From: Bilabrum cf. latius
Taxonomy: Eukaryota
Direction of reading: 5' to 3'
DNA length: 64,000 bases
Assembly (NCBI GenBank): GCA_965178125.1
Contig: OZ237767.1
Coordinates: 124,001-188,000, forward strand
The translations under genes were made by a program, and so were the position numbers. The notes beneath the pieces are model-generated. The model made no database searches. It saw only the letters and a list, made by a program, of their open reading frames with translations, and was not told where the DNA came from. Positions within the stretch are counted from its first letter, which is position 1. Each line of letters starts with the position of its first letter. This document shows, piece by piece, positions 6,099 through 63,957 of this stretch.

Positions 6099-9000
6099 AT
6101 GGCAGATGTCCAATCAGCATCTTTCGTGTCTCCCAAAAACCAGCTGTTTGACCGAGAAAAGCCGAGGTGAGTGCCACGGTGACACACGCAGTTGAGCGTG
6201 AATCCTTCGCATGGCTTCTAGGTTGGCTCCATTACTTTGGAATACGTATACAATACGTATGATCTGTACTTTCACGAGGGCACACGCGATATTTTACGAG
6301 TGCATGATGAGGGATTGGTCCCAGCCAATCACCTGACATTTTCTGTTTTGACCTTTCCCGCAGCAACAGCACCATCACGGTGAAGGTAGAAGGAGCAAGC
6401 GCTGTTCGCCTCGCAAGCTCTACGAAAGAAGACGGGAAGTCCAAGCGGAAGGCCGCCGGGTGTTGGGGCACTTGGTGGTGCCTCGTGCTTGGAGCAGGTG
6501 TGCTCGCGCTCGCGCTCGCGCTCGGAATCACCCTCTTCTTCGTGCTGGGCCAGGGAGCAGATGAAGACGCACCCATAGGCGACACCTCCGCTGCACCGCT
6601 GCAAGGTGCATCTGGAGGAGCTGGCCTCGACGGGGTCCGCAACGTCTCAGATGCCTTCAGCCAGTGCGCCGGTCACGGCCAACGGTCGCTCGTCGACGCC
6701 GCCTTGGACGACCAGTACCAGGGCTTCACGGTGGCGTCGTTCGGATTCAATGCCACGGGCATCGACACATCCACGCGGTGCAACGTGAGCCAGGCGATCG
6801 CCGAGGGGGCCCGCGCCCGCCTGCCCGCGCAAGGCGATGGCGGGCCGGGCCGGGACATCTTCGTGAGCCTGCTGGGCGGAGAGGGACACGGCGGGTCGGG
6901 GGTAGGTCCCACGGGTCCCCTCGTGTACACGCCCATGGTGGCCACGATGGCCGTGATGGTCTCGAGCGAGAGCGATGCGGTGGCCGTGGTGGACACGCTC
7001 GGGTCCCAGGCAGCTGGCCGGGAGCTGGTGCTGGGGCCCATCGAGCAGGCCCCGGGGCTGGGCGTCTCGGCTAGCAATGCCACTGCGGTGCCTCCTCCAC
7101 CAGCGGTGATGGAAGCGCTGCGAGCCGCCGATGAGGACGAGGAGGCTGATGATGCCGTGGGTGGCGGCGGGCAGGGCACGGCCACCCCCGGGGCGGGTCC
7201 CGTGCTGCTGGACCTGTCCCCGCTGAGGAGGCAGCAGGCCAGCGCGGCTGCTGCCGGGACTCCGCTGCCGTCAGCATCGGGTACGCCCACGCCATCGACA
7301 ACTCCTTCCACGTCTCCGGTAAGGCCTGCATTTCTTGACCGGATCTGACTGACTCTCTCTGATCGGTAGGACCTCCAGTATCGCCCAGCATAGCCTGCAA
7401 GTGCTCGTTCTCATCTATATTCCTCGCAGACTCCGAGCAACAGCCCCACGCCCAGCGTCACGGCCAGCCCCAGCAACAGCCCCACGCCCAGCGTCACGCC
7501 CAGCGTCACGCCCAGCCCCAGCAACAGCCCCACGCCCAGCGTCACGTCCAGCCCCAGCAACAGCCCCACGCCCAGCGTCACGGCCAGCCCCAGCAACAGC
7601 CCCACGCCCAGCGTCACGCCCAGCGTCACGGCCAGCCCCAGCAACAGCCCCACGCCCAGCGTCACGTCCAGCCCCAGCAACAGCCCCACGCCCAGCGTCA
7701 CGGCCAGCCCCAGCAACAGCCCCACGCCCAGCGTCACGTCCAGCCCCAGCAACAGCCCCACGCCCAGCATCACGCCCAGCGTCACGGCCAGCCCCAGCAA
7801 CAGCCCCACGCCCAGCGTCACGGCCAGCCCCACGCCCAGCATCACGGCCAGCCCCAGCAACAGCCCCACGCCCAGCATCACGGCCAGCCCCAGCAACAGC
7901 CCTACTCCAGTAAGAACTAGAACAATATCGTTGCTGTGTCGCTGGTAGCTCGCTTAGCGACTCACCACGTATCGAGTTGCAGTTCCGCAGGTCCACCCTC
8001 TGTGTATTGCGTCCTTCGTGTTGCCCTCTGTACCGTCGCAGTCCATCACACCATCCGGCACCCCCTCACCCTCGGCGACCCCCCAGTCGTGGGGCTACCT
8101 CGAGCACACGTCCAACCCAGGCCGGTTCATCCCGTACGAGTTCACGCCCATGGGAGACGAGATGTTCTTCCGGGCGACCGACATCGATTCCAACTCCGAG
8201 ACGGGTCTGTACTCGTGGGACGAATCGAGTGGCATCCAGCTGCGGGTGGATGTTGCCACGGGGGGTAGCATCCCTCAGTAGTTTACTCCCTGGGGTCAGG
8301 ACAGGCTGGTCTACTGGTCTACCGTGCAGGAGGCTGGGCAGTCGGTGATGCGAATTGTGGTGTACAACACTACCAGCGACACAGTGTACGTCGTGCCAGG
8401 CACCAACGGCGTCGGTGAGGACATGCAGGCATCCGGCACACGCATGCTGCTGGACGAGGCAGGCGGGCGCATGCTCTTCTTCGGCAAGCCCGAGGGATGG
8501 ACGGACTCGGGTGCCGTCCACCGCTGGTACTACGGAGCGTACTTCCTGTACTCCGACATGACAGTGCAGCGGGTGTTTGACATGAGCCCCTACATGATTT
8601 CTAATTCATGGCGGGATGAAGACGGCTTCATGACCATGTTCCAGGGGGACTGCTACGTGGCGCTGTCGGGGGAGACGCAGTCCGTGGTGAGGGTCAAGGC
8701 CGGCACGCACGATGTAGACGTGATATACGACTCGGGGAGGACCAGGAGCAACCTGATCATGTTCCGGCCATTGTTCGAGTTCAACAACAAGCTGTACATG
8801 GTGGACTGGAGCAACACAGACTACAAGATCCACACGTACACTGGGAACGGGACACCGACGCGGCTCTTCCCACCTTCCGGTGGTGCGGCTGATGCCCTGC
8901 GAACCATGTCCAAGCCCACCGTGCACGACGGCAAGGTGTACTTCATGGGTTCCGATGGGTCCACCTGGAACTTGTACACGTATGACGGGGCCACGACGGT

Positions 9001-9277
9001 GACGGCCGTGTCGGGGGCAAGCAGCATAGATGCGAACTACAGACACACGCAATTCCCAATCATGGATGGCGAGCTGTACTTTCCGAAGAAGCCTGCTGAC
9101 TTTGAGCTGTGGCGGGTGAGTGCATCCACCGGGAATGCCGAGCTTGTGCTGGACACGACAGGCACGGGCGGGAACTGGTTCGGCCTCGAATGGATGATGC
9201 CGTTCAAGGGATACATCTGGCACCTCACTTCGATATCATCAAATGAGGCGATGGCTTGGTGGTACAAGCTAGGCTGA
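6099..9277 (+). CDS. Type II membrane surface protein: N-terminal TM helix, Ser/Thr/Pro mucin-like stalk, C-terminal beta-propeller-like domain. Exons 6099-6166, 6364-7318, 7430-7909, 8042-9277; one in-frame TAG (8279-8281)
   Basis: Three GTRAG...CGCAG introns join the exons in phase. Hydrophobic segment WWCLVLGAGVLALALALGITLFFVLG; SVTASPSNSPTP repeats; beta-rich repeats (PYEFTPMG / PQ*FTPWG, WNLYTYDG, FELWRVS). Ends in TGA. Confidence 0.8.
7436..7909 (+). repeat. Coding minisatellite (36-bp unit, SVTASPSNSPTP) forming a mucin-like stalk exon
   Basis: agcaacagccccacgcccagcgtcacggccagcccc is repeated with variants. Confidence 0.9.
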
Positions 9278-9602: not shown

Positions 9603-12600
9603 ATGGAGCAATTGCACACGTGGCCTTGGCTCGGGAGAGTGATATCTTCGGTCACATGTATCGCTGTATTTTCGATATTCATGTAGACGTTACATTCAAG
9701 TATCCCTGTGAGTGCAGTAAATATTGGCAGGGATGCGTATGGGTGTCAACTGGGCAGACTTGCACTTTGAACCTGCTGTTGTACGTCTTGACTTGGTCGC
9801 AGGGAGGTGATAGCGGAGAGATCGTTGCAGAGGGGTGCAACTTTGGAGTGGCACATCCGCCTGGATATCCTCTGCAAACTCTGCTTAACTATCTCGCCTC
9901 ACGGCCAGCACTTTCTTCTATTGGTACTCCTGCGAGGCGAGCAAACCTGCTTTGTGCCGCCTTTGGGGCCGCCGCGGTGTTTTGGCTGGCCCGTGCAGGT
10001 CAACACGGTGCCAATGCAGTCCTAATGCAAGCTAGCAACGCAGGAGTCCCCTTTGGACTGGCCGTCGGCAGCGCACTCGTCACAAGTGCATGCGCCGCAT
10101 GCTGGGGCCTGGCGCCGGTGGTGTGGCGGTACAGCGCGGGAGCAGAAGTATTCGCGCTGAACAACGCGCTGTGCGCCGCGCTGCTTTGGATCGCATGCCG
10201 TGCAGTCGAGGTCACCCGAAGGATTGAGATGGAGATGGAGCAGTGGCAGGCTGGTAGAGAAGCCACAGGAGCAGGAGCAGCTGCGGGAGCAATAAGTGCT
10301 GCCGGGCAACTAGAGAGTGGTAAGGACAGCATACATCCCAACTCAAGTAAGGATTATTGGGCTGGCTCAAACACTGGGCGGGTCACCCTTGCTGAGCGAG
10401 TGGCTGGCGGATGCAACGCACTGTGGTGGCATGTCATTGGCGGTGCACTCGTCACAGGGCTGGCGCTTGCCAACCAGCAAACGGCCGTGCTGCTCGCAGC
10501 ACCCCTCGTCCTGCTGGTGGCTGGTGTGACGAGTGGGCTGCGGCTCGCGGGCGGGGCGCCCACGCTTGGCTACGCAGCTGCTGCAGGATTGGCCGGACTC
10601 TCTAGCTATGGCCTGCTCCCCTCTTCACACCTGCTCGTCGGCGTGCAGGCGGGGTCCTGGGGCAGCGTGGGGAGCATTGCAGGCTTCTTGCATCACTTCC
10701 GAAGGGCAGATTACGGCAGCCTGCAGCTGTACAGCGGCGACGATAAAGGAGCGGAAGGTCCCTTTGAGCGCACTCGGCTGATGGTTGTCGACTGGGCTGG
10801 GGAACAAGGGGCGGCCGTGGTGCTGGGGCTGGGCGTGCTGGGGGTGCTTGCGTGGGCGCTGCTGCAACTTGTTGAAATGAAAATGGAGCGGGAACGTTCC
10901 ACAGGGAACGTTGCTGGCAGTGGTTTGCACGGTCTGCCGGACTCTAGCTCGGGTGACTCTGGCACGAACCTTCTCTCCCTTGCAGAACTGCATTGGTCGG
11001 GGATGGGCGAGGATGCGTCGAGCAGAGGCCAGAAATAGAAAGGTAAGGTCAGTGATGAGTGTGGGGCGGGCTCGGGGGAGATCAAGGACGGGCCAACGGA
11101 TGTCAAAGACGACAAGCACCAGCAGCACCAGCAGCACCAGCAGCAGCAGAAGGTGACCGGTCAACCGGGTCAACCAGAGTTGGATTCAGTGCAAGGGGGG
11201 AGTGACAGGGGTGGTCTACGAAGGAGACGAACAAAACTAAAAGGTCGCAGTTTGGGAGAGCCGCACAACGGGTCTCGAACCGGGGACTCCCGCGGTGGGG
11301 AGCAGACCGGCTAGCCGCCCGCAGCACTTGCTGTCTCGATGGCGCCCCTGTTCGTGCCCTTGCCCGCCAGGTGGGCTCCTCTCCTTTTAGCGTTGGTCTT
11401 GGTCTTCTACCCCGCCGTGTTCCACTCCCTCTCAAACATGCCGCTGCAGTCTCCGCTGCTGTACGGGGTGCACCAGAGGTTCTGGATGCAGCCGCTGATG
11501 GTCGCAACGGTGCTCGGTGGGGTGGGGGCCGCTGCGGTGGCGCGGTGCATCGGTGCACTGCACTGCAATGCCAAGGGAGCCGGTCATGGCACTCGTCACA
11601 CCGCTGTTCTGTCCCTTCTGTGGCTTTTCCTCAGCGGGTGCGCCGTTCTCGGCCCACTGGTGGCACGGACGGCACCTCCAGCACTCGCCTCTGCGCTGGC
11701 GCGGCCACTGCTCGGCGCGGCGATGGACAAAACCATCCTGGGAATAGCGTCGGGCACCACCAACGAGCGCTACGCCGGAGTCCCGCCGGCCAGCCACCCG
11801 CTCGCCCTGACCGGTCCCGCGAGCCACACGGCGATTCACGCTCTGAGGGCGGACGCGTGGCCCGGACTGCTGCACCACGAGCAAGAGGACGAGGGGCTGC
11901 TGCGGGCATTCCTCAGGGAACAAATGGCCTTGCAGGACACGACAATCGACGAAGACGAAGGTGTGACGAGTGGGGTGGTGAAAGTGGCGCTCAGGCAGGA
12001 CCTGGCCATGGGGCCGGGTGCAGTGCTGCAGATGCCCCTGTCGGATGCGGTGCGCAGCAAGCGGCACAGGCCGGGTCTAGGCAGGACCACGGCGCCGTGG
12101 GTGCCTCGCGGTGCCGCCTTAGGGTACCCACTGGGCTCGTCACACCCCGAAGCAGCTGCACCTGGGGACTGGTCGGGGGCAGGGCAGCGGGGGCGAAGGG
12201 TCCGCACATGGGGCGGCATGATCCGATCCTGGTTGCGACCGAGATGGAGGCAGCGTGACGAGTCGGGGAACAACGTGCTGGCGAGGTATGCCCACGCGCT
12301 GCTCGCACCGGTGCCGGCGGCCTCCGCACTCGTCACATCCTACGACATGCAGTGGACGGCGCTGCGGTACGTAACCGCGTGCGAGGGACACAGGGCCTAC
12401 GTGGGAGAACAATCATCCAGGGAACAAGGGAACCAGCCACCGGTTGTGCTTCCCCCCAGGTCAGCCCGGCCTCACCTGCTCAACGCCCCCATGATGACCT
12501 TCAAGTGGCATGAGCACTACAGGAAGGCCTACTCGAGGCTGGCCACGCCTGGGCTGCACATGTGCAAGCCGCTGACGGCGCACCACAGGGACGGCGGTTT

Positions 12601-14317
12601 CGCTCTGGAGGACATGGTGGAGGCCTCCTTCGCAGCGGCGGCCGGGGAGGCCATCGCCGCGGAGGAGGCGGTTGCAAGCAGCAAGCGAGAGGGGGTCTCT
12701 GAGGTTGCAACCGGTGCGAGGAGCACGGCGGTCCGGCTTGCCCGTGCTATGGCTCGAGGCGTGCCCACCGTGTACGAGGGCGTTGACAAGGCCCCAAAGC
12801 TGCCGAGCAAGGCGGATCGAGGCGTGCTGAGGCAGGCGGCAAAACAGCTGATGCTGCAGGTGTGGGCTGAAGTTCCCAGGGTGCATCGCATTGGAGTGCA
12901 TGCATAGGACGACATCCAGCGTGCTGGGGCAGCGGGGGGGGTGCCTGGCTCAGAATCAGGAGTCCCGGGACCAAACCTCACTGTGGCTCCGTGGCACATC
13001 GCCGTTCCGGTTGAAAGGGAGCTGGGGGAGTATCAGTCTTCATCTTCATCTTTGGTGGGCGCAGGCGGCAGCAGCAGCGAGGGCCAGTACTGCCGATGGA
13101 CGGGGCGTGCCCGAGGGCCGCGATCCGCCGATGCCGCGCTCGCTTGGGGCGCCCGATGCCTGGACGTGCAGGGTCTGCCCTCTGTGCTGCCGGGGACTGT
13201 CGTTCTGGGGAACAACGACAGGCGGGGTGCGCGGCTGGGTGCATCGAACTGCACTGCAGAGGAGCGATACCGCAAGTACGGCGGAGGGACCGTGTTCCGG
13301 TTTCCCAGGGAACAGTGGCACGAGGCCGGCGGGGAGCCGCTCTCACTGCTTGGGATGTGGTACGCAGGCGAGCCCAACCAGCCCCCCGACGGTGACCGGG
13401 TGCTGCGGGTGCCCATGGGTCTCGGCAGGCTGCTGCTGCCTCGGCCCGTGGTGGACGCCGTGGGCGAGCGGGCCCTGGCTCCCCTTGCCCTGCTCGCTTG
13501 GCGGGCCGTGGAGGCCTCCTTTGTTCCCCCGAGCAGGTGGGAGCACGGGGCGGATACGTGGGAATGGACCACCCAGGAGGACTACTGGACTCAGGCGGCG
13601 GAGGCGGCTGCCTGGCTGCTCGATGCCTCCACGCAGCCGGCGAGCTGGGGCCCAGGGAACAAGGGACCAGGGAACAAGGGTGATGGGGCGGGTGGGATCC
13701 TGGCATGGGTGACCGCGTCAGAGGAAGCTCTGGCGAAGCTAAAGCTTCCCTCTACCCTGCACGATCCGGGGTCCGAATCCGGGTGGGCCCCCGGCGTGCT
13801 GGAGGCGGCTCGAATTTTGGAGCAGTGTGTGGCTCGGCTGCTGTCCACGGGGCGGGAGCCCCCCGCGGCCATGTGGAAGAACCTGGGACTCGCATACGCG
13901 AAGGTGGTGCAGAAGCACCTCCCGTGTGACGAATAGGCGCACGTGGGGGGGCTGGTGCGGTATAGGCCGCGGCTGCCTTCGCTCGAGCTCAGGGCGGGGG
14001 TGGAAGCTCTGGGGCACTGGGCCAAAGGTGCCGCCAGGGAGGCGCAGGCGTGGCTCAACGGATAGATCGGGGAGGAGGGTGTGACGAGTGACCAGATCAC
14101 GCCAGCCTGGGTCGCGGCGCAAGCCCCCTTGCCCCCGCTAGGTTCCGCAAGTAGCGCGGCGCCCACTGCGGAACAGCTGCGCGACGCCATGGCAGGACGG
14201 GTAGTGGAGGCGTGGGGCAGGTTCCTTTTGTGCCCCGAGGCGAAGCAGGACGGGAGCTACCAGGGCATCAAGCAGGTCGTGGATCGGCTGTCCAAGGTGG
14301 GCCAGGGGAGGAAGTGA
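9603..14317 (+). CDS. TMEM260: TMEM260/DUF2723-family multi-TM protein (GT-C type O-mannosyltransferase family), ~1539 aa. Exons 9603-9707 and 9803-14317; six in-frame TAGs (9684, 11036, 11312, 12905, 13934, 14063)
   Basis: The spliced N-terminus reads IFM*TLHSSIP|GGDSGEIVAEGCNFGVAHPPGYPL, the family signature. Also AEVFALNN, SWGS...GFLHHFRRADYGSLQL and RFWMQP. Four supplied ORFs share one frame and are separated only by TAG. Ends in TGA. Confidence 0.85.
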
Positions 14318-14509: not shown

Positions 14510-15804
14510 ATGCGATTGATTATTCAGAAGGATCCTAGCGAAGTAGGCTCATGGGTGGCGAATTACATCGCTGAGCGGATCAGGAAATTCAACCCCACAG
14601 CTGCGAATCCATTTGTGCTGGGCCTGCCGACCGGATCTTCACCCCTTCCGGTTTACAAGAGGCTGATTGAACTCCACAAGGCAGGTCAAGTTAGCTTTAA
14701 ACATGTTTGTACCATCAACATGGACGAGTATGTCGGGCTGCCCCGTGACCATCCGTGAGCTTCAATTCCTGGAATAGTTGACATTTTGCTCGCCTAGTCG
14801 CAATGCTGGTTCACCAAGCCCTGAAAATGCATGCATGATTGTAATTTTAATGCATCGCAGCGAATCCTATCACTCTTTCATGTGGAAGAACTTCCTCAAG
14901 CACATTGACATCGATCCTCGGAATGCCCACATCTTGAACGGCAATGCGGAGGATTTGCAGGCCGAATGCGACGAGTACGAGCGCACGATCGCTCGTCTGG
15001 GTGGTATTGAGCTGTTTCTTGGCGGAATCGGCCAGGATGGCCACATCGCATTCTGCGAGCCAGGCTCGTCGCTCTCAAGCCGCACTCGGGTGAAGACGCT
15101 CGCATACGACACGATCGTCGCGAACAGCAGGTTCTTCGACGACGATCTCGAGAAAGTGCCTAAAATGGCTCTTACGGTTGGAGTTGGCACCGTCATGGAT
15201 TCTCGAGAGGTCATGGTCATCGTCACGGGTGAGCATCCATAGCCAAAAGAGTCGCGAGGCGACTGCCGCTGCCAAATGCCATTACATGCCTCATGGTTCT
15301 CTCGCGCACGTCAATACAAACTACCGCTGTAATTGATTATTCTCGCAGGCGTGCGCAAGGCCCTTGCCCTGCATCACGTGGTGGAGCAGGGAGTGTCTCA
15401 TATGTGGACGGCGTCGATGCTGCAGATGCACCCTCGCGCATGCATCGTGAGCGACGAAGACGCAACGGCCGAGCTGAAGGTCAAGACGTACCACTACTTC
15501 AAGCAGCTGCAGGAGACCCAGGCCCAGCTCATGCACACTTCCCAGGGTGGTGCCATGGCAGGGTACGAGGGCGGGGTGGTGAGCGGGGCGGGATTCGGGA
15601 TGGCGAGTCTGCTCGACCCAGCCATGCTTGGGGCGGCAGCTGCCGCGGGTGGGAGGCTGTCCGCCACCCAGCTGCAGGATGCAAGCAAGAGACTGGCGGC
15701 TGCCGCTGCAGCCCGCCAGGAGGCCGAGGCGGATGCTCGCGCCAAAGCCAGGGCTGCTTCCACGTCTCCCTCTGGGGCAGGGGCAGGGGCGGCCAGGGGC
15801 GGTG

Positions 15805-15835
<31 letters not shown>

Positions 15836-16019
15836 GTCGTCATCATCGGTAGCAGCCGTGGCCGGCACTGAGATGCCGGAAGAAGAGCCCGTGGTATTCG
15901 CCGGTGGTGTGGCTGGAGACAAGAGGGCGAGGACGGAGCAGGACGGCGCTGGCGGGGCGGCCAAGCCAGTGGCGAGCAAGGAGGAAACTGCGCCCGCCGC
16001 CAAGAAGGCGCGCACGTGA
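14510..16019 (+). CDS. GNPDA: Glucosamine-6-phosphate deaminase with a low-complexity C-terminal extension. Exons 14510-14754, 14861-15228, 15349-16019; no internal TAG
   Basis: MRLIIQ...[89 protein letters not shown]. Two in-phase GTGAGC...CGCAG introns. Confidence 0.95.
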
Positions 16020-16210: not shown

Positions 16211-19200
16211 ATGGATCCTCCTAGCAACATGACGCCAGCGGAAATGGAAGAGGCCCGGCGCTTTGCAGCCATTGCAGCCAGAGCTGAACGCAGAGCTGCG
16301 GAGAGAGCGAAAGCCAGGGGATCGAAGCAAGGCACACCCGCCACAGCATCGACAAACGCAATATCTGGAACTAGTTCTGCTCGCGGAGTCAGTAACTTTG
16401 GCACTGGGTCACTTAGCGCAGGATATGCCCACACATCCAGTGGCCGCCAACAGTCCACCGCTGGCGGCAGCGTTTCAGCGGTTCAGAGGCTGATGAAAAC
16501 TATGCGAAGTGATTCTAGTAGTAGACGATAGAATGTGCAGCAGCCGAAGTCAACTGCTGGAAGCCAGGGTAGGGGTGGCACTGGCCTGTACTTGGATTCG
16601 CTGCCGGCCGACCAGAGAGCAAAGGAGCTTGCCTTGGCGAAAGAGCGGTATCTTGGAAGTCGAAATGGATAGGAAGAGAAGGATGCAGCCGCTGCGTTGG
16701 CGGAAGGCAGCCGGAAGCGCAAGCGCAGCGGACCGAACCGGCAGTCGCTTCGATTCGAGTGGGATGCAGGCGATGACACATCTGCCGCTGCGGGCGGAGC
16801 AGGCAAAGCAGCCTTACAGGACAGCAGCAGGTCTGCATAGTTTCGATCCCTGCAGGATCACCAGGAGCGCGATCGGTGGGGCATGTCGAGCAATCATCAC
16901 GACCACGGGCGCGGCGCCTCCGGGTCGGGAGCGAGCAGCGGGCACCGAAGGGGGGCACAAGGGGACAGGGGCCAGGACAGGGACTGGAGAAGAGACCCAT
17001 ATGGTGACTCTCGCGGGAGCAGCGGCCGCGACAGCCGGAGAGATGACAGGCGAGACGATAGGCGAGACGATAGGCGGGGGGGACGCGATTGGGGCCGGGA
17101 CAGGGGTGGGCGCGACGATCGGAAGGACTGGCGAGGCGGCAGCGGGAATCGATCCCGGGAGCCCCGCGGTGCCAACCAGGCGGTCGTGGCCGCCTCCCTT
17201 GCAGCCAGCACCCCCCTATTCGGCCGGGGTGCCATGGGGGGTATGGACCCCAGCTGGGGGGTGTCTCGGCAGGGCCGCGATGCTTCCCAGGCACGCATAG
17301 AGGCGAGGCGGAAAGAGGCAGCGAAGGTCGAGGAACGTTCGCTGAAGGCGTTGGAGGGCGAGAGACAGGCGAAGCGGAGGAGAGTCGAGCAGGAGGACCG
17401 GGAGAAGAACACGAAGATGGCGAATGAGCGCATGAAGAACGGTGGTGGTGACCAGTCCGCGGCTGCGATGAGCGGCGGCGGCGGCGGTGATGCCGGACTT
17501 GTGGGCGGTCGATTCCGAATCTTGCGACCAGAGGAGATCGCCTAGAGTGCGGGCCAGCAGCCCAGCACGAGCTTGGGAGGCGACAATGGGGCTGGTGGTG
17601 ACACGGGCAGCAGCAGCTCTGGTGGCAGTGCAGGTGATGCGGAGGCATCCAAGCCAACAGCGCAGGAGCCAGGGCAGGCAGCAAGCGCTGCGATGAAATT
17701 AGGCGGCAAGGGCGGTGCTGCAGTTGCTGACGATGCAGCTGCGATCGTTGCTGTTGATGTTCCTAGGCAGGAGCAGGACGAAGACGAAGATGAAGATGAG
17801 GATGATCTTGCGCTTTTGTCGGCACGGCAGTCTCAGGTGGTGAGGAAGAGGAGGAGAAAAGCCATCGATACGCGGCACTGGACGGAGAAGAAGAGAGAGG
17901 AGATGACGGCCAGGGACTGGCGGATCATGCGGGAGGACTACGACATCAGAGTGCGCGGCGCCGGCGGGCTATCGGTTCCGCTTCCGCTCCGCGAGTGGAC
18001 GGAGGGCGGGCTGGACGAAGGCATCATGCAGGCCATCAGCGAAAAGGGCTACGAGAAGCCTAGCGCCATCCAGAGGCAGGCCATCCCCATCGGGCTGGAG
18101 GGCAGGGATCTGGTTGGAGTGGCTGAAACAGGCAGTGGCAAGACGGCGGCCTTTGTGATCCCCATGCTGCAGAGGCTGGCGAAGGCGCCCAAGGAGGTGC
18201 GGGAGGCATGCGCGACGGACGGGCCTCTTGCCCTGATCCTCGCACCGGTGAGAGAGCTGGCCCAGCAGATCTTCGCGGAGGCCCAGGAGCTGGCGAAGCA
18301 CAATGGGCTGCGCGCTGCATGCGTGGTGGGCGGGATTGACATACACGAGCAGGCGTCCGTGCTGTCAAAGGGGGTGGAGGTGATTGTCGCTGCGCCAGGA
18401 AGACTGCTGGAGTGCATCAACAAGAGCTTCGTGGTGTTCAACCAGTGCAGGTACATCGTTCTGGACGAAGCGGACAAGATGATCGATCTCGGGTTCGGGC
18501 CAGAGGTGGAGCAGATCATGGATATGATGGCCGGTGATGGGGCAGTAGATGGTGCCGCCGCTGGGACTGCGGCAGCAACGGGAGCAGTCTCGGCCAAGAC
18601 AGGACAGGCGCCGATGCAAGGGACCCAATCGTCAGCACCGTCTAGTGCAGCAGGAGCCGCATCAGCAAATCAGGACGAGGATTCCCAGCCCGCGTGGCTC
18701 AACACCCCACCGCACCTGCGCCGCACGACCATCATGTTCAGTGCGACCATGCCGCCCGCCGTCGAAAAATTGGCCAGATCCTACATGCGGTAGCCTGTGT
18801 CAGTCAGGATCGGGGACCAGGACAGCGGGAAGAACCAGAGGATCAAGCAGACGGTCACGAAGGCGCCCTTTGGCAGGAGGTCTGGCAAGCTGGCCGAGGC
18901 GTTGCGAAGCTGTCCTCGCCCAGTGATCGTCTTCGTCAACATGAAGAAGACGGCGGATCTGCTTGCCAGGGAGCTTGAGGGCCACGGACACGCGGTGGTT
19001 TGTCTACACGGTGGCAAGACGCAGGTGGAACGCGAGCTCGCTTTGGCCGCCTTCAAGAGCGGAGAGGTGGACGTGATGGTGGCCACGGATGTGGCAGCAA
19101 GGGGGCTGGACATCCCCGGCGTGCAGTACGTCATCAACTACGAGCTGCCCAAGCTCTTCGACAGCTACACCCATAGGATCGGCCGGACGGCGCGCGCAGG

Positions 19201-19354
19201 CACAGAAGGTGCAGCGCTGTCGTTCTGGTCTGACGACGACGCCGACGTGTTGCCTCAGCTTAAGGCCCATCTGGAAGGGACGGGGCAGAAGGTGCCTCCG
19301 GATCTAGAGAAGGCAGCGCAAGGCGCAGAAAAGGGCGGTGCCGGGGGGAAGTGA
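16211..19354 (+). CDS. DDX23: DEAD-box splicing helicase DDX23/PRP28, single exon, ~1047 aa; five in-frame TAGs (16529, 16670, 16838, 17543, 18791)
   Basis: PRP28-specific motifs KERYLG, RFEWDAGDDTS and RHWTEKKREEMTARDWRIMREDYDI. Q-motif PSAIQRQAIP, AETGSGKT, DEAD, SAT, ARGLD, HRIGRTAR. All fragments are in one frame. Ends in TGA. Confidence 0.93.
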
Positions 19355-30779: not shown

Positions 30780-31017
30780 CCCCAATCTGGTTCACCTGTA
30801 CGCCTTCCTCTCAAGCAGCCCCAATCTGGTTCACCTGTACGCCTTCCTCTCGAGCAGCCCCAATCTGGTTCACCTGTACGCCTTCCTCTCAAGCAGCCCC
30901 AATCTGGTTCACCTGTACGCCTTCCTCTCAAGCAGCCCCAATCTGGTTCACCTGTACGCCTTCCTCTCAAGCAGCCCCAATCTGGTTCACCTGTACGCCT
31001 TCCTCTCGAGCAGCCCC
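30780..31017. repeat. 39-bp tandem repeat, six copies, covering the last codons and stop of the SLC35A gene
   Basis: ccccaatctggttcacctgtacgccttcctctc(a/g)agcag x6. Confidence 0.95.
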
Positions 31018-44500: not shown

Positions 44501-44716
44501 AGCGTCACGGCCAGCCCCAGCTTCAGCAACAGCCCCACGCCCAGCTTCAGCAACAGCCCCACGCCCAGCTTCAGCAACAGCCCCACGCCCAGCGTCACGG
44601 CCAGCCCCAGCTTCAGCAACAGCCCCACGCCCAGCGTCACGGCCAGTCCCAGCTTCAGCAACAGCCCCACGCCCAGCGTCACGGCCAGCCCCAGCTTCAG
44701 CAACAGCCCCAATTAA
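41525..44716 (+). CDS. Type II membrane mucin-like protein (~1063 aa): TM helix, small extracellular domain, ~2.4-kb Ser/Thr/Pro stalk; two in-frame TAGs (41753, 42053); possibly 3'-truncated
   Basis: IVGCLAVIVSGLLMAAIATAIAISV TM segment. The frame continues across TAGs into the SVTASPSFSNSPTP array. TAA follows the last repeat immediately. Confidence 0.75.
42283..44710 (+). repeat. Coding minisatellite, 42-bp unit (SVTASPSFSNSPTP) with 24-bp variants, ~2.4 kb, nearly homogeneous
   Basis: agcgtcacggccagccccagcttcagcaacagccccacgccc repeated more than 50 times. Confidence 0.95.
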
Positions 44717-44719
44717 GTT

Positions 44720-48652: not shown

Positions 48653-48891
48653 TAGAGTAGAGGCTGAAATGCAAAATCCGTGGATCAAGTGAAACCTTAC
48701 AGTGCAATGCATTTGATCGATGTGCGTCTGCTTCTTGCACGCGACCAATTCCTGTCTTGGGTAGGTGTCAGTTGGCTACAATACGCTCCCATTTGTCATT
48801 AGTGCCTGGTCTCGCTAGTCTATACAACTGCCACACCACACACAGTGTCACACGCCACGCTGCTCACACACCCGCACCACTCATCACACCG

Positions 48892-53915: not shown

Positions 53916-56592
53916 ATGGGAGCATGTGGATCTAGTCTTATTTCAGGTGCCGACGCATCCGGCAAATATTTTGATCGAGATTCATCCACTGAGGCCAAAT
54001 CGCGCAGTGATATAGATCAAAGCACTTATGAGACTGTTGGGGCCTCGAGCATTTTTGTCACTCCTGTAAGCTATATGCATGCGTTCAAGTGATTTACCAT
54101 CTACTTTTTTGGATGGTAAAAGACGTGACAAATTCTAGACACTCATGCTGTACTTACTTGCAACGCAGGGTACCACGTAGGGAGCTGCCGGTGGTTCAGG
54201 CAGCCGAGGAGATGCGGGTGGCGACGCGGAGCGTACGCTACCTCTTGCAAGGACTAAAGTTCCAGACAGCCCAACGAAACTCCGATTGAATCTGTGGTAG
54301 TCCATGAAAGACACGGCAAGACAAGGCAGCAATAGTACGACCCCACAATGGGAGCAAGATGTCCCCGAGAATTTGTACGACGAGAATGCTGACCAAGGAA
54401 TCATGTGGGCTGACAGTCCAAGGGCTAGTCGACAAGATATTTATAGAAGCGATTCAAGAGGGTCTACAGTATGTAGCGGTGACGTATCCGCGAGACTGTC
54501 GGAATCCCAAGTCGGAAAGCAAGATGCTGCTGCTCTCAGCACAGCTCAGCCCTTCTCTGCCAGGTCGGGGGGCGTATCGGAACCGGCCGCAGCAACTTTC
54601 GAGGCCGAAACAGACGAGTCTTCATCTCAAGGGGGTTCCAATAGCGATGACCACTCGCTTCCAGGGCACGCGCTGCCTGCCAGTCCCAGGCCGAACGAGG
54701 AACATCACGACGCTGTGAGCACCGTACGCGTCGTTGCTGGGGATTCCGAGCACTCTGCAACAGGGAATGCACGTACGAAGAGCTAGAGCGCAGGAAACGG
54801 TCATGCTTTGCACGATCAAGAGCAGCCAGTTGCGCGTGCAAGTGGGCACGTGCAAGCATCCGCAGCAGCCTCGACATCGTCCTCAGCTGGTAGCGGGACT
54901 GCCACTAGCCCACCAGGTGAAGAACAAAGGAAAGAAATGGATGGTGGTATTCAAGTCATCAGCGGCAGTAGCTCGGACGATGAAGAGCTCGATGGCGCCG
55001 TGAATCTCGTCGCCGCGAGCGAGAGCGGGGAAGCCCAGGTGGCGACCCGCGTGCCATTTTCCCCCGTGCAGCCCAGCGTGGAGATCCCACAGCACAGCCA
55101 GCGCGCCAGGGAATACCTTGCACATGGATCTACCCCCGAAACAGCGCACGACTCGGTAAGGAGAGATGGTTCGGCTGGAGCGGCGAGCGGTTCTCACGCG
55201 CATGGGGACGGCCACACTCATATTGCTTTGGGCTCTAGGGGAGGCCCTCACGACATGATGGGCGGTTTTCGGGTGTCGCGGAGAGGCGATTAGGATCATT
55301 GGGGTCCACACGGGGAGATGTTTGAGGCGGGGAGCGCGGAAGTGGCCGCTGCTTCCAAGGCGGACGACGATTCGATCCTCATCGACGCTGGTGCATCCCT
55401 GGTCGCCCTCAAGTCCATCGCCCGACAGCTTGACACGACTATGAAGCTAGCCGACCTTGTTCCCGTCAGGACCATCGGGGTCGGCACGTTCGGGCGGGTG
55501 AGGATGGTGCGGGACAAGAGGACGGGCAAGCTGTACGCTCTCAAGACGCTGCAGAAAGCCAGGATTGTGCGCCTCAAGCAGCAGCGCAACGTCTGCTACG
55601 AGAAGGCGGTGCTTGCTTCCATCCGCCACCCTTTCTTGATCCAGTTGCAGGCCGCTTTCCAGGACGAGGAGTGCATGTACCTGGTGCTGGAGCTGGTGCA
55701 AGGCGGAGACTTTGTGGGGAGACAGGCAGAAGTGGTTGTGTTCGAGGAAGCATCCGCTCGTTTCTACGCTGCCTGCGTGCTGAGCGGGCTGGCCCATCTG
55801 CACGAGAGGAGGATCTTGTACAGGGACCTAAAGGTGAGATGAGTTCTGCGGCTGCCCGTTCCTTCGTGTGCCGACCGTATCACGCCTCCTCCACCCCACG
55901 CTGCTCCCCCTGGATGCCTCCGTACCGCCAACTCTAACGCACATGTTTTGTTGCCTGTACCCTTGCACTATCATCATCCAATCGCTTTGGGACCCCCGCA
56001 GCCTGACAACCTGCTTGTGGACACTACTGGCTATGTGAGGCTGTGCGATTTCGGCTTCGCAAAGTACGTTCCGGCCGGCTCCATGACGCGAACGCTGTGC
56101 GGGACCCCCGATTTCCTGGCCCCAGAGTGCTTGCTGAAGAGCGGGCACCATGAGGGTGCCGATTACTGGGCCCTCGGCGTGCTCATCTACGAGATGCTGT
56201 CTGGTGACAGCCCGTTCGCCTCGGATGACGGTGACCAGGTGGAGACCTTCAAGCGGATTCTGAACTGCCAACGCACTCTCGCGTTTCCCTTGGAGATGCG
56301 GAGTGAACAGCGTGCCGCTGTGAAGCTGCTCACTGGGCTGCTGCAAAAGTCGATGCCGGCTCGTCTCGGCTGCCGCCGTGCAGGCGTGTCTGAGATCCTG
56401 TACCACGAGTGGTTTTCGGCGATCGACTTTGGCAAGTTGCATCGCAGGGAGATTAAGGCACCATGGGTGCCGAAGCTCGAGTCCGAGGACGACACGCAGT
56501 TTTTTGATGACTTCTCTTGTGAAGAGGAGGAGGAGGACGAGGAGGAGCGGCTCAAGCCAGGGACAGACATGGCCTGGTGCAAAGATTTTTAA
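53916..56592 (+). CDS. PKA-catalytic-like AGC kinase A with MGACGS acylation motif and long disordered N-terminus. Exons 53916-54065, 54169-55833, 56002-56592; four in-frame TAGs
   Basis: IGVGTFGRV, YALK, YRDLK|PDNLL, DFGFAK, TLCGTPDFLAPE, DYWALGVLIYEM, APWVPKL, WCKDF-TAA. Confidence 0.9.
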
Positions 56593-56790: not shown

Positions 56791-59294
56791 ATGGGTGTTT
56801 GTGGGTCGTCCCTCGCAGTGTAGACAAAACCAGCAGATAATGCTATGCAGGATGGCTCACTTGAGTTCCCTGGCAGCGATGGTCCCCGTTATCGAGGCAA
56901 GGATGTAAGCGTGCTGCTCTTTGCTTGGCGTCTCGCCTGCGCAAGCCGCAATAACCGCCCTATCCGCCATATTTCCTACAATATATTTGCTTAAAATCGT
57001 GTTTTCCCTCCACCGCTGGATTTAAACTTCCCAAGGCTCGCAGGAAGTGGCTCAATACAACACAAGCAAAGCAGGCAGCCTTAGCAACATGGCGACCCGA
57101 CCGCCCAATGCAACCGGACAACGCGCGTGTGGAGCTGTACAACGGATGTAGCATGGCAGCAAAGGTGATACTTATATGCATGACATTCTCGAGCCCGCGG
57201 AGGATCGCACAGGAGAGGTACCAGGCAACGTCAATGCGGAGGCAAGGCCAACAAGCACGGCAAAGTCCGCCTGGCATGATAAAACCAATCGTCATGGCAG
57301 GTCCCAGACTGGTCTTGGTCTGGCTCCAGGAGCAATTAGGGATGGATCATCGTACAGCGGTTTCAGCGATTCGTTTACACGACTTTCTCAAGTATCTGGA
57401 TCCCTGATCGATTTCAAGGTGAGCGTAGCTAGCTCTGCACCATTCGTGGCTGGACACATGCCGTCGCATCGCGTGCGCCAGTACCAGATAAAACAGAACA
57501 CTTCTTAGGGCTAGCTGAACTCCCAGGCGTCTACGCGGACGCTGGGGTCCACATCCTCGGGGTCGAGGTCGCAGACGAGGACGGGAGCTAGCACGCCTCG
57601 GAGCGTCCAGTGGCCGCAATCGAGCATGGTACAGCTACCAACAGCCTCCGACCGCACTTTAGGTGAGCACAATACATCCCAAAGGAGCTCTTCTACGTTT
57701 GAATGCTAAGTTTTGCACCTCAAACACGGTGATTTTGCTTGCCAGGGGGCAGGATCGTGTCCGTGGTATTGGCTTCTATCCGTCTATGAGCTAGCATTTC
57801 TGTATGTGACCATACTTTAGCACTACTGGCAGCTGCAACCCATACAACTGTCCATTGGTCCAGCTCTTGCGCGCAGGTGAGCCTGGTAAAGCACATCACG
57901 AACGCATCCATCGAGGCTCCAAGGCTGCGAGAAGGCAGCGCGAGAAGCGAAACCGCAACATGCCGAGGAGTATGAGCGCCAGAGAGCGTACAATTGCCCT
58001 GGCTGCCGGTGGGTCAGTATCCCGCTGCAGAAAATCGCCGGTGCTGCTCAGCGCTCGCGCCAAGCCAACGGTTGCAATCTCGAGTGGAGCCGGGGTGGGA
58101 GCGGCAGGGGGCGGCGCCGGTCGTGCAGTAGGTCGGCAGGAGGAGTCAATGAAGTCGGAGGACGCTGCAGATGCAACGGATGGGTCTCTGGAGGCCCTCA
58201 AGTCTATCGCAAGGGGTCTAGACACGTCGATGAAGAGAACTGACCTGGTGTCGCTGAGAACCATCGGCGAGGGCACATTCGGGCGAGTAAGGATGGTGCG
58301 GGACAAGAGGGATGGCGAACTATATGCGCTGAAATCCATGACGAAGGCGTCCGTGATTAGGATGTCGTACCAGAGTTACGTCTGCTACGAGAAGGCGGTG
58401 CTTGCCGCCATCCGTCACCCGTTCCTGATCCAGCTGCAGGCCGCTTTCCAAGACGAGGAGTGCATGTACCTTGTAATGGAACTGATTCAAGGCGGAGATT
58501 TGGCCACCCGATTGGGGCACGTAGGTGTGCTGAGCCAGTCGTCGGCTCGTTTCTACGCTGCCTGCGTGCTGAGCGGGCTGGCCCATCTCCACGAGAGGAG
58601 GATCGTGTACAGGGACCTAAAGGTGAGCATGCATGCGCTATTTGAGCTAGCACTAAGTCTGCCGTATCTCGATATGCCTGAACCGTTTGCGCCGATGCCT
58701 TTTTCTGCGCAGCCCGAGAACCTTCTGCTAGATACGAGCGGATACATCCGCATTTGCGATTTCGGCTTGGCAAAGCACGTCCCAGCAGGGGAAACGACCA
58801 ACACGTTATGCGGGACACCTGATTTTGTTGCTCCAGAGTGCCTGCTGGGCAGAGGACATAGTGAAGGTGCCGACTACTGGGCGCTGGGCGTTCTCATCTA
58901 TGAGATGCTCTGCGGGAACACCCCGTTTGCATCCAGCGACGGGAATCAAATCAAGACGTTTAAGCGCATCATTCGAGCTGACAGGTCCCTGACCTTCCCG
59001 AAATTCACCCAGGATGTGGCACCCAACGCTGTCGTCTTGATTCGAGACCTGCTGCAGAAGAATCTAGCGGACCGGCTTGGCTGCCGTCGACCAGGTGTGC
59101 TCGAGATCATCCAACACGAGTGGTTTTCAGCAATAGACTTCGATGAGCTGCTGCAAAAGAGACTCAGGGCGCCATGGGTTCCGAAGCTCACATCGAAACA
59201 AGACAGCCGATACTTTACAGAGTGCACGGCAGAGGTAGACATCAGGGATACCCTCGCTGTTGACGCCGACATGGAGTGGTGCAAAGATTTCTGA
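56791..59294 (+). CDS. PKA-catalytic-like AGC kinase B with MGVCGS motif. Exons 56791-56904, 57044-57662, 57877-58622, 58713-59294; four in-frame TAGs
   Basis: IGEGTFGRV, YRDLK|PENLL (90-nt stop-free intron at the same position as in kinase A), DFGLAK, CGTPDFVAPE, WCKDF-TGA. Confidence 0.88.
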
Positions 59295-59610: not shown

Positions 59611-61189
59611 ATGGGTGGCATATGCGTGTCGTATCCCGAACAACACGTTGTCGCAGACAATGCACAGTGTACTGCGAAGGTGGCACCAATACAATTACCG
59701 GAGTTCGGCGGCCGAAACATGCAAGCGCCGACGCCAGGTAAGAATGCAAGTACATACCCGTAATTCGCGCTAATCCAGGCTCAGTAAGTCAACAAAGCTT
59801 ACAATGTGATCCTGTTACTTTCGTGCTGCAGATTCAGGTGATGTTCTTGCGCAAAAGGGTGAATCTGGGGGGACTTTCGTGAAATCTGTTCCATTCCCAC
59901 TTTCGCCTCATCGCGTGAGTTTTGGCAGTCTTGAAGATAGCATGGCGCAATTCCTGAAGCAAAACTCCTACTGCACTTGTGACGGCGAATCTGAAGCGCA
60001 GAAACTGCCTGGATCTGCCGACTTCATGCCGTCGGCGCAAGACGTGGGCGTTCCACCACTTGCCGGCGCCAGCGCTGCCGACGTGCCTTCAAGGCGTCGC
60101 TCATCGTGGATCAAGCTGCGGGAGGAGCAAGAGGCGTTTGCTTTCGCGCCCCTTCGCTTGCCTGAATTCGACGATCTACTTGGCCGTGTTGCCACAGATA
60201 TCACTACAGAGGATTTGGTGGCTTCGGTGCGGGCTCGCACATTCAGTCGGCAAGGCTCCCAGAGCTAGCCGGGTTCGGCTAGGTCGAAGCAAACAAGAGG
60301 AAGCCGGCTTCATTGCACAGGAGACTTGCGGACGGCAGTCCCAGCGCAGGATTCGGGGGCTGAGGGAGCAGTCAGCACGGGGCCAGGTTCCATCGGGCGG
60401 CCGCATTCTTGCCAGTGCAGAGCACAGCACCAACACGACTCTCATCCCGGAATTGTCCTTGGAAGCTCTACGAGCGAAAATTTAACCGTGCCTTTAGGCC
60501 TGGGCAAGATAAAATCGCCGGCAGGACTAGATATGAGCAGAGCTGTATTACCACCCGGCGGGGGTGCTCCAGCCTTCAAGCAGACTACCTCGGAGCCGAG
60601 CCTGGAATCGCGGTGGGGAAAACACCGAAGGACATCCGATTCCAATGATGCATGCACCAAATGCCCCGTGCCGTCGCGGTCAGAGACTTCCGGCACACCA
60701 GCAGACCCTGCAGTGGTGGACGCTCGCCTCGCACCGAACGGGAGGCCTAGCGAAGGCGACAACGATCGCCCCGCTCCTCTCCCAGAGAGGCACCCGGACA
60801 ATAGGCGTCCATCGCTAGACGGAATCCTATCGAGATCATTCGAAGCTACGAGTGCAAGGGACAAGGACAAGGGGGTCGATGGCAGCGCTTCCTATTTTTA
60901 GGCACCTTCCATGAAAAGCGCGGACGGAACACAATCCTCATTGTGCAGCCTCTCCCTGGCCACAGCGCAGCTGGATTCCAAGTATGCCAGCGATAACGTC
61001 TAGCAGTAGCAGACTAGTGCGCCCGGGTAGGCGTACCAGTCCGGCGGCAGGAGCACCAGCGGGGCCTCCGTGCTGACGCCAGCGAGCGGAAGTCTGGAAA
61101 GCATGGCCAGGGAGGTAGCCCGGCTGAGGGATCTTTACGGGGACAGCAGAGAAATTGACACGCCAGGGCATGAGATCAGAGGTGTTTAA
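59611..61189 (+). CDS. Disordered protein with MGGICVS acylation-like N-terminus and no kinase domain. Exons 59611-59737 and 59832-61189; five in-frame TAGs
   Basis: In-phase GTAAGA...TGCAG intron. The frame stays open across TAGs at 60266, 60899, 61001, 61007 and 61028 to a TAA. Confidence 0.7.
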
Positions 61190-61541: not shown

Positions 61542-63957
61542 ATGGGGGCTTGTGGATCGAAAAATGTGCAGCAGCCCGACTTCGATGATCCCTCGGCATG
61601 CCAACCAGTGAGGTACGGGTACGCGGTGGAGATGCCCCCTGCTAAGTCCGCTGTGACTATCAAGTCCGACTATATTGCCTTTCTGACGTCACATGCCCTC
61701 CGCCTATCAAGCAGGGAGACCAGGCACAAGCAGATGAGAATGGTAGTGGCGTCGTGACCCGCGTAGGTACTGGGCTGCCCACAGACCATGTGCCGCGCCG
61801 TCCCATACTGAAACAAGAATGTTGCCAAGACCAATCCAACAATAAGGATGAAGAGGTGGAAAGGTCCGCTGAAGTGCCCACAATCACCCGGTCTCGCACG
61901 CTGTGGGGCAATATGCGAAGGCTCTCTCTGCATGAGCTTCAATTGCCAGAGGACGACCTAATGGCATCAGATGCTACGAATACACATACGCAGACTTCAA
62001 TGGCTACTCCTTTTTCATATACTGGGAAATTTGACACAAAGCTAAGCGTTTCAGGCGCGCAGAGGGGGTTCACGTACTCGGATGCTGCAGGCGCCCTGGA
62101 CCTCATGGACAGTTAGCCTGGCACAGACACAGCTCCCTAGGATAAACCCAGTGAGACAATTTACCATCGCATCTTGAGCGCTCCCGTGAAATTTGTTTGC
62201 GGGCCTTGCAAGGTCAGGGTTAGGGTGAGCATTCCTCGATTCGTTCAAACTCGTGCTATGTTGTTCCCATCCCCTTGCCATGAAAGCCTATCATATTGTG
62301 CAGTACCTCCCCCCGTTGATGACAACCTCAATGACGACGAAGAAGAGCACGAACAAAGTGGCCACGATTCAAGTGACGCTATAGATGTAGTCAGTTCTAG
62401 TAGCGATAGCAGCAGCGTCGGGCTTCAATCAGAAGAACTACAAGAATTGAATGTGAGCGATGGATCGGCTTCTGATCAGCAGGACGGCTCAATTCCAACA
62501 ATCCACGAATCCTGGAGTGATCTAGACCGGCCTGCTTAGGTGGAGCACGGCCACCTTTCCAGGGATACCCAAGGCAATGACGCGCACGAAATGTGCGCAA
62601 CAGCGACATTGTCGGCTGATACTGGAGGCGGCTTGGCAATGCCGGCTCATATGTCTGTAGATAGGGGGCCTCGACTGGAACCAGTTCAAGAGAGCACCTT
62701 TGTTCCGGTTTCGCGGAGGCCGCCGACGTGGGCGCCCGCAACCACAAGGGTGCGCTCTCGTCCCCTGCCCCCACCACCTTCCGTCCTGCCGAGCTTCTCA
62801 CTGCTGGAGCTCAAGTCGATCACCCGACAGCTTGACATGACCATGCAGCTGGCTGATCTGGTACCCGTGAGGACCATCGGGGTGGGCACGTTCGGGCGGG
62901 TGAGGATGGTGCGGGACAGGAGGACGGGCAAGCTGTACGCTCTCAAGACGCTGCGGAAAGCCACGGTCGTTCGCTTGCGGCAGCAGCGCAACGTCTGCTA
63001 CGAGAAGGCGGTGCTTGCCGCCATCCGTCACCCGTTCCTAATCCAACTGCAGGCCGCTTTCCAAGACGAGGAGTGCATGTACCTGGTGCTGGAGCTGGTG
63101 CAAGGCATCTAGATGTCCAGAGTGATCGGGACAGATGAGTTTCATTCCGAATCCCAGGCTCGATTTCTCGGTGCCCAGATGCTCTGCGGGCTTGCGCACC
63201 TGCACCTCCGCCGGGTCCTATACCGCGGGCTCGAGGTAAGAGAGCAAGACTGAATCCTGTCTGCAATCGTGTGGAAAATGCCTATTATTACGCATCACTC
63301 CCTGCTCCCCCTGCCCATGCCTCCTGCCTCCTCTCCTGCTCGCAGCCAGCAAACGCAGTCATCGGACCCGATGGATATCTGAACATGCGAAACTTCATGC
63401 AGTCGAAGCCGCTTCCGGCAGGGGCAAAGACCTGGACCTTCTGTGGCAATCCGGATCGAATGCCGCCGGAGTGTTTGCTTGGCCTCGGGCACAACGAAGG
63501 CGCCGATTACTGGGCGCTCGGCGTGCTCATCTATGAGATGATCTCCGGAAAGAACCCGTTCGCATCGGACGACAGCGATCCCATGAAAGTCTCCCACAAC
63601 ATCATTTTCGAGGATGTGCTCGCTTCAAGAGGTCCGCTTCCCGCCCCACTTGCGGTATCCTCACCTGCTGCGCTGGACCTGGTGCGCGGACTGCTGCGAA
63701 AGTCCCAGTCAGACCGTCTCGGCTGCCACAGTGAGGGAGCAGTCGAGATCCTGTAGCACGAGTGGTTCTCGGCGATCGACTTCGGCAAGCTGCTCCGCAA
63801 GGAGATAGAGGCGCCCTGGGTGCCTAAGCTAGAGTCCGAGGACGATGGCGCACAAGTTTTCGAAGAGCAAGTCGTATACTCGGATGAAGAGGAGGGGGAC
63901 GAGGTAGAGTAGGAGATGTGTACTGGTGAATCCATGGAGTGGTGCAGACACTTTTGA
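61542..63957 (+). CDS. PKA-like pseudokinase C with MGACGS motif. Exons 61542-61607, 61715-62150, 62304-63235, 63346-63957; six in-frame TAGs
   Basis: The N-lobe is nearly identical to kinase A. The catalytic loop reads YRGLE|PAN, DFG is replaced by NFM, and the activation segment reads CGNPDRMPPE. The conserved tail MEWCRHF-TGA lies beyond the TAGs at 63754 and 63910. Confidence 0.85.

Follow-up and report, generated by a model that had tools for sequence, protein, structure and literature searches.

Evidence for a nuclear genetic code in which UAG alone is reassigned, most likely to glutamine, in a GC-rich, intron-bearing eukaryote

Introduction

The meanings of UAG and UAA nearly always shift together when nuclear genetic codes change, and fewer than ten lineages are reported to have split the two codons (PMC5304391, PMC11687900). 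According to published accounts, the fornicate Iotanema spirale reads UAG as glutamine (Gln) and retains UAA and UGA as stops (PMC5304391, PMC9161772), and the same UAG-only assignment to Gln is described for the ciliates Hartmannula sinica, Trochilia petrani and Protocruzia tuzeti (PMC11687900). Here we analyze a 64-kb stretch of DNA (positions 124,001 to 188,000 of contig OZ237767.1, assembly GCA_965178125.1), which is referred to as a whole as the window and whose genes carry TAG in frame. UAG is very probably a sense codon in this genome, most likely for Gln, with UAA and UGA serving as stops, an arrangement that corresponds to NCBI table 15.

UAG-only reassignment to leucine (Leu) is reported for the rhizarian exLh and three TARA phyllopharyngeans, and to serine (Ser) for Scotinosphaera (PMC5304391, PMC11687900, PMC8271138), while the ciliate PL0344 is described as reading UAG as glutamate (Glu) and UAA as lysine (PMC10553269). 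Joint reassignment of UAA and UAG (UAR) to Gln, which is NCBI table 6, is reported for many ciliates, hexamitin diplomonads, several ulvophyte orders, Streblomastix and Amoeboaphelidium (PMC11687900). Genetic code 15, with TAG as Gln, is also reported in crAss-like and Lak phages (PMC9523058). For the release factor eRF1, the described changes include GGS in place of GTS in Iotanema (PMC5304391) and alanine at the position of Leu69 in exLh (PMC5304391, PMC11687900).

The window is ~60% GC and contains no N, and its DNA is nuclear, from a GC-rich eukaryote with introns. The introns are short (87-137 nt), begin with GTGAGC or GTAAGA and finish with CAG.

Results

In-frame TAG codons and open reading frames

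Seventeen gene models were built, and all tallies given here are limited to these 17 genes. Across 19 coding sequence (CDS) segments from 16 genes, the 14,475 in-frame codons include 82 TAG, 0 TAA and 0 TGA. The two off-frames of the same segments (28,950 positions) contain 210 TAG, 110 TAA and 477 TGA. If the off-frame TAG share of 0.26 held in frame, the probability that 82 of 82 in-frame stops would be TAG is ~1e-47. The in-frame TAGs are real and far above chance. An earlier note on this DNA, which proposed that TAG is a sense codon and that TAA and TGA remain stops, had pointed to internal TAA and TGA as frequent as TAG as a finding that would speak against its proposal; 0 of each were found versus 82 TAG.

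TAG is present in frame in 15 of the 17 models. The earlier note gave 16 of 17. Its total of about 87 TAGs compares with 82 in the CDS models, some in-frame TAGs being located before the first ATG or in likely introns. Recounting returned the numbers given before for the frame 32717-39175 (14 TAGs with no TAA or TGA), for a WD40 gene that had been named AHI1 (7) and for the DDX23 gene (5); the TMEM260 gene was credited with 6 TAGs and has 5. Gene ends are TGA in 13 of 17 models and TAA in the other four (39175, 44716, 56592 and 61189), which is the same tally as was first reported.

Stop-to-stop open reading frames (ORFs) were compared under the standard code and under each single-stop reassignment. 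Summed over ORFs of at least 500 amino acids (aa), the standard code gave 6,654 aa, TAG as sense 19,078 aa, TAA as sense 6,671 aa and TGA as sense 13,654 aa. Six ORFs of at least 1,000 aa were obtained with TAG as sense, the longest of them 2,161 aa, and none under the standard code or with TAA or TGA as sense. The longest ORF was 887 aa under the standard code, and maxima ranged from 887 to 973 aa for the codes other than that with TAG as sense. Reading TAA as sense together with TAG barely raised the sum, from 19,078 to 21,226 aa.

If TAG encodes Gln, it makes up ~13% of the Gln codons (82 of 621, the others being 375 CAG and 164 CAA). The base at position +4 is similar after TAG (C 0.34, G 0.38) and after CAG (C 0.35, G 0.32), a comparison that is not decisive.

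A separate observation concerns the spacing of the codons. TAG-NNN-TAG pairs were seen four times (35579/35585, 47050/47044, 61001/61007 and 24118/24124), versus 0.47 expected; the enrichment of Q-x-Q written with ordinary Gln codons is only 2.2-fold. At one of the TAG-NNN-TAG pairs, a related protein reads Q-L-Q.

Coding signal and conserved regions downstream of TAG

Codon log-odds, contrasting in-frame with off-frame usage, were calculated over 15-40 codons with one gene left out at a time. Values per codon were +0.104 upstream of TAG (n=69) and +0.112 downstream (n=71). Around the terminal TGA or TAA, values were +0.213 before the codon and -0.064 after it (n=17). After-TAG and after-stop values differ with p=6e-5 in a Mann-Whitney test.

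Conserved regions also run across TAG. In the DDX23/Prp28-type DEAD-box helicase (16211..19354, plus strand), the helicase core spans TAG 18791, and an alignment with PDB 4nho puts the TGA level with the C-terminal ends of the human and Chaetomium proteins. In K3, one of three kinase paralogs (61913..63957, plus strand), a TAG is located 15 codons before the stop, and the MEWCRHF C-terminus that is conserved among the paralogs lies downstream of it. The DDX23 core, the K3 C-terminus and the log-odds all agree with the previous claim that conserved domains and C-termini run past the TAGs.

TAG codons in transcript-like contigs

A search of sequencing runs found the stretch in 7 runs from 3 studies. 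Contigs (not raw reads) of four of these runs, X1, X5, X6 and X7, were compared with positions 16000-35999. X1 is probably the source DNA, and X5, X6 and X7 belong to two other studies. Contigs of X5, X6 and X7 join 32048 to 32186, such that a 137-nt GT..AG intron is gone, while the DNA run X1 retains this intron; the three runs therefore hold processed transcripts. Of the 34 CDS TAGs in 16000-35999, 23 lie within the listed pieces of these runs, which match the window without a differing letter or a gap, and 11 fall outside the pieces. All four runs, drawn from three studies, bear out the window's letters: two differing letters are listed over 20 kb, neither of them at a TAG. Since the transcript pieces pass over TAGs with no gap or mismatch, assembly error, editing and splicing are ruled out for the 23 covered sites. 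Neither of two objections that the earlier note had raised against itself is thus seen, namely spliced or edited TAGs (23 of 34 are present in transcript-like contigs) and TAGs that are assembly errors for CAG (no difference listed for the four runs falls at a TAG).

The explanation that the TAGs go untranslated, as errors for CAG, as parts of introns, as sites of RNA editing or as lesions of pseudogenes, is scarcely tenable. Some in-frame TAGs do fit it. Four of the five in the frame 7349-9277 lie in likely in-frame introns (two introns, which also hold TGA), introns of the glucosamine-6-phosphate deaminase gene contain TAGs, and a few TAGs precede the first ATG. Set against these are the match of four runs from three studies, the 23 TAGs passed unspliced and unedited in transcript-like contigs, and the coding signal that persists after TAG. 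Pseudogenes, moreover, would gather TGA and TAA as well, and each is found 0 times in 14,475 codons.

Codons used at gene ends

If TAA were used in the way that TAG is (TAG:CAG of 82:375), ~36 TAA would be expected among the 164 CAA, and 0 were seen. Kinase K1 (54079..56592, plus strand) ends with AWCKDF-TAA in the same column as EWCKDF-TGA of K2 (57960..59294, plus strand) and EWCRHF-TGA of K3. Beyond each of the four TAA ends, the coding signal falls below zero. The lack of in-frame TAA, a TAA at a C-terminus conserved among paralogs and the loss of signal together exclude the code in which UAR is Gln. NCBI table 6 was rejected as a candidate on the same counts, 0 in-frame TAA versus ~36 expected, with four genes ending at TAA. 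That TAA and TGA remain stops, as had been proposed, is borne out by their absence in frame, by their use at all 17 ends and by the fall in signal after them.

No TAG is required to end any of the 17 genes (p ~0.006 if TAG had its off-frame share of 0.26, with 17 genes only). A dual meaning, in which UAG is a sense codon with a minor role as terminator, is unlikely. Two gene ends would accommodate it. In the nucleotide-sugar transporter gene (30987..32526, minus strand), the sole TAG is located 11 residues beyond the end of the alignment with the solved CMP-sialic acid transporter and is followed by 67 unconserved codons, such that it could be sense or stop. In paralog B of two multi-pass membrane proteins (26429..30070, minus strand), the last TAG is 14 codons ahead of the TGA, an arrangement that with 17 genes looks the same as sense use. 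The tally of 0 in 17 argues against a dual meaning, as does K3, where the TAG that is 15 codons before the stop is followed by a conserved C-terminal motif.

Amino acid assigned to UAG

Protein collections were searched exhaustively using HMMER with the 12-TAG kinase-like protein (46415..48799, minus strand), and by a word index with this protein, the 2,152-aa protein (32717..39175, plus strand) and the WD40 protein (48892..53796, minus strand). Seven short public proteins are 99-100% identical to window products (P0001, P0002, P0003, P0005, P0076, P0077 and P0079). Six of them (P0001, P0002, P0005, P0076, P0077 and P0079) stop one residue ahead of a window TAG, and P0003 runs on to the terminator of its gene. 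The pattern marks the 99-100% identical fragments as products of standard-code gene calling that were cut at TAG.

Fragments from a close relative (P0004, P0044, P0047 and P0078) are 77-87% identical by BLASTP, and those from a more distant relative (P0080 and P0081) are 62-69% identical. P0004 has Q at the window TAG 47603-47605, P0047 has Q, Y, Q and Q at TAGs 35090, 35327, 35579 and 35585, and P0078 has Q at TAG 49282-49284. The close relative therefore has Gln at 5 of the 6 spanned TAG sites and tyrosine (Tyr) at one, with no Leu, Ser or Glu. Q and TAG amount to 4.3% of residues, and Gln at 5 of 6 sites would arise by chance with a probability of ~1e-6. The earlier suggestion that TAG is probably Gln fits this result, which comes from a small sample.

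In a reciprocal test, standard-code ORFs of the relatives were found to end right before the window codons TAG, CAG, CAG and GAC (TAG or CAG in 3 of 4). As three of these ends lie opposite TAG or CAG of the window, the relatives probably share the TAG code, their codons being inferred from protein fragments. No DNA of the relatives was found in metagenome contig scans made with the 12-TAG kinase-like protein and with the alignment of paralogs A and B.

Several points weigh against reading UAG as Gln with no other role. The Gln call comes from six orthologous sites in one relative lineage, and one of these sites is Tyr. In one column of the kinase paralogs, K3 has TAG and K2 has CAA (Q), but TAC (Tyr) stands there in K1, which is K3's closest paralog. 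TAG aligns to Arg in the DDX23 proteins of human and Chaetomium, to Asp in a kinase ('QGGD') and, when the membrane protein paralogs are compared, to Phe in a membrane stretch; each of these fits Gln and is not diagnostic. With regard to the transcripts, the RNA status of X5, X6 and X7 is a guess that rests on one spliced joint (0 of the 7 runs are recorded as RNA, and X5 is marked 'probably DNA'). Finally, should UAG have a dual meaning, two or three TAGs close to where genes end (31191, 26471 and possibly others) could act as stops.

The Tyr at one of six sites, the TAC of K1, the acidic residue at one kinase TAG and the Phe at one membrane-stretch TAG would also suit a sense codon for a residue other than Gln, of which Tyr is the most plausible. 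Other residues are known at reassigned stop codons (Tyr for UAR in Mesodinium; Glu, Leu and Ser elsewhere). We consider such an assignment quite improbable here. A change from TAG to TAY would be synonymous if UAG encoded Tyr, and Tyr should then dominate among close orthologs; Gln is found instead at 5 of 6 sites in fragments that are 77-87% identical. Relatives' ORFs end opposite a window CAG twice, and Leu or Ser is found at no site of the close relative. An occasional Tyr can be accounted for under the Gln assignment because changing one base turns TAY into TAG. At E up to 1e-3, remote homologs of the 12-TAG protein have A, T, D, F, H, Q, R, G, V, K, E and L in the TAG columns, which are too variable to be of use, and the TAGs fall in variable parts of the alignment of paralogs A and B.

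Other genes and repeats of the window

No tRNA gene and no match to an Rfam family was found in scans of the 64-kb window, and no convincing gene is present in its first 6 kb. The first 2 kb contain non-coding tandem repeats (61-740 and 1254-1642, with units of 61, 80 and 156 nt). Genes are arranged in co-oriented blocks with short intergenic gaps: plus strand at 6311-26109, minus at 26429-32526, plus at 32717-44716, minus at 46415-53796 and plus at 54079-63957. The exception is a tentative minus-strand gene at 19709-20749.

The first gene is represented by the 3' exon of a membrane protein (7958..9277, plus strand), which has Ser/Pro/Thr repeats and a C-terminal part resembling a beta-propeller; one TAG (8279-8281) is exonic, and the stop is TGA. 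Upstream of this exon, the frame 6311-7957 contains two likely in-frame introns with one TGA and four TAGs. The TGA (7346-7348) is in frame between the ORFs 6311-7348 and 7349-9277, and two TAGs are also located in the stretch, which begins with GTGCGC. This stretch is most likely an intron, and its TGA is no evidence of read-through.

A TMEM260-like gene follows (9656..14317, plus strand; Pfam PF11028, E=1.4e-16), with five TAGs (11036, 11312, 12905, 13934 and 14063) and a TGA stop. The glucosamine-6-phosphate deaminase gene (GNPDA; 14510..16019, plus strand; Pfam PF01182) has three exons, introns of the form GTGAGC..CAG and a TGA stop; its TAGs are in introns only, with 0 exonic. The DDX23/Prp28-type gene (Pfam DEAD and Helicase_C; PDB 4nho, E=9.5e-115) ends in TGA and has in-frame TAGs at 16529, 16670, 16838, 17543 and 18791, the last two of which are covered by transcript-like contigs.

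Neither of the next two genes belongs to a recognized family. The tentative gene at 19709..20749 (minus strand) has four TAGs, three of them covered by X7 pieces, and a TGA stop. The gene at 20920..23022 (plus strand) has a helical-repeat look, four TAGs (21775, 21808, 21952 and 22954) and a TGA stop, and all four TAGs are within the X5 piece 20990-23019. Paralog A of the multi-pass membrane proteins (23317..26109, plus strand; five TAGs, TGA stop) is tail to tail with paralog B, which has six TAGs and a TGA stop.

The nucleotide-sugar transporter (Pfam PF04142, E=7.6e-62) has one TAG (31191-31193) and ends in TGA at 30987-30989. Its intron at 32049-32185 (GTAAGA..CAG, 137 nt) is the one removed in contigs of X5, X6 and X7. 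Positions 30780-31017 are occupied by a 39-nt unit repeated 6.1 times with 98% identity. On the minus strand, this unit consists of the transporter's final codons (LLERKAYR), the TGA and the first bases beyond, such that the 3' end of the gene is reiterated downstream. The array's edge, at 30978, is where contigs of all four runs start.

The 2,152-aa protein, also with no recognized family, has 14 TAGs, 9 of which are within transcript-like pieces, and a TAA stop. Near its C-terminus, a 15-nt unit is repeated 17 times (38759-39019) and encodes (MGGPG)n, which draws many low-complexity database matches. A second membrane protein (41522..44716, plus strand) contains 57 copies of a 42-nt Ser/Pro/Thr repeat, has two TAGs (41753 and 42053) and ends in TAA; GT comes next after this TAA, which may be a splice site. 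The repeat SPSxSNSPTPSVTA is common to the two Ser/Pro/Thr-repeat membrane proteins, at 42296-44711 (57 x 42 nt) and at 7436-7902 (~12 x 36 nt). The long 42-nt array is open in 5 of 6 frames and produces spurious Gln-rich ORFs in another frame.

The kinase-like protein of 794 aa has 12 TAGs and a TGA stop. The WD40-repeat protein (1,634 aa, seven TAGs, TGA stop) gave only WD40 from Pfam and only generic WD40 clusters from the Atlas (query P0076). The three AGC-type paralogs K1, K2 and K3 are in same-strand tandem (54079-63957), and in each an intron is located right behind the YRDLK codons. K1, an AGC-type kinase (Pfam Pkinase), has five TAGs and a TAA stop. K2 has no TAG and ends in TGA, and its 87-nt intron (58623-58709, GTGAGC..CAG) is in frame and stop-free. 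K3 has six TAGs and a TGA stop; in it, YRGLEV replaces the YRDLKV of the paralogs and NFM replaces DFG, in a region that has changed further, and its C-terminus is conserved and its frame open but for the TAGs. From these motifs, K3 looks like a pseudokinase. Between K2 and K3 is a gene with no recognized family (59942..61189, plus strand), with five TAGs and a TAA stop.

Discussion

Transcripts, coding signal, conserved domains and the Gln of a close relative all support the core of the earlier note, that TAG is sense and that TAA and TGA are stops. Cytosolic translation would then read UAG as Gln, with UGA, the main terminator, and UAA still terminating. By analogy with the systems described in PMC5304391 and PMC11687900, UAG would be decoded by a transfer RNA (tRNA) with anticodon CUA that is charged by glutaminyl-tRNA synthetase. 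Such a tRNA could most simply be a mutated copy of tRNA-Gln(CUG), which is one mutation away, and would pair with UAG but not with UAA. The N-domain of eRF1, as far as the described variants are a guide, would have lost or weakened its recognition of UAG and kept that of UAA and UGA.

As a codon table this is not new, since it matches NCBI table 15. Novelty may lie instead in the lineage and its setting: GC-rich, UGA-dominant and apparently a small clade. We suggest, with some hesitation, that the window represents an independent and unreported origin of a nuclear code with UAG alone as Gln, in a GC-rich non-ciliate lineage in which UGA is the main terminator, and that this code is common to at least two related lineages that are represented solely by environmental assemblies. 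If so, UAG was captured in a genome whose composition spares this codon from extinction, an outcome not predicted by classical codon capture under AT pressure. Differing from the described UAG = Gln lineages in its ~60% GC and in UGA as main stop, it offers a test of whether codon loss through AT pressure is needed. Lineages that split UAG from UAA are natural experiments on how eRF1 and tRNAs discriminate between both codons, and this one could supply a natural UAG-blind eRF1 variant of relevance to amber-suppression engineering. Note also that annotation under the standard code breaks genes into fragments at TAG, as has already happened in a public protein collection; proteome, orthology and phylogenomic analyses of this organism therefore need table 15.

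Besides Iotanema, no report of a GC-rich non-ciliate lineage with UAG as Gln was found in a search of full-text literature, the scope of which excluded subscription journals and supplements. Phages that use code 15 are described as recoding against or alongside a standard-code host, whereas the window belongs to a cellular nuclear genome. Codes with UAG as Leu, Ser or Glu, in the reports cited above, split UAG from UAA as the window does, but the residue differs, the window's relative having Gln at 5 of 6 sites. Codes with UAR as Gln share with the window both the reassignment to Gln and UGA as terminator; in the published descriptions UAA is then Gln, whereas in the window it is a stop.

The closest likeness is to codes in which UAG alone is Gln. 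Iotanema, as described, has a UAG-only reassignment to Gln in a non-ciliate that keeps UAA as a stop. UAA is, however, reported as its dominant stop (PMC5304391), whereas genes of the window end in TGA in 13 of 17 cases and in TAA in 4 of 17, at ~60% GC. The ciliates with UAG as Gln are reported to have the same codon table (NCBI table 15), and UAG is widespread in most of their genes, as it is in the window. In the account of these ciliates, UAA ends 86.9-98.3% of genes, UGA is rare and GC content is 27-54% (PMC11687900). With UGA as main stop, ~60% GC and many genes on one chromosomal stretch, the window is unlikely to come from Iotanema or a phyllopharyngean ciliate. As a multi-gene stretch of 64 kb, with ~60% GC and introns of the conventional GT..AG type (87-137 nt), it does not resemble a ciliate.

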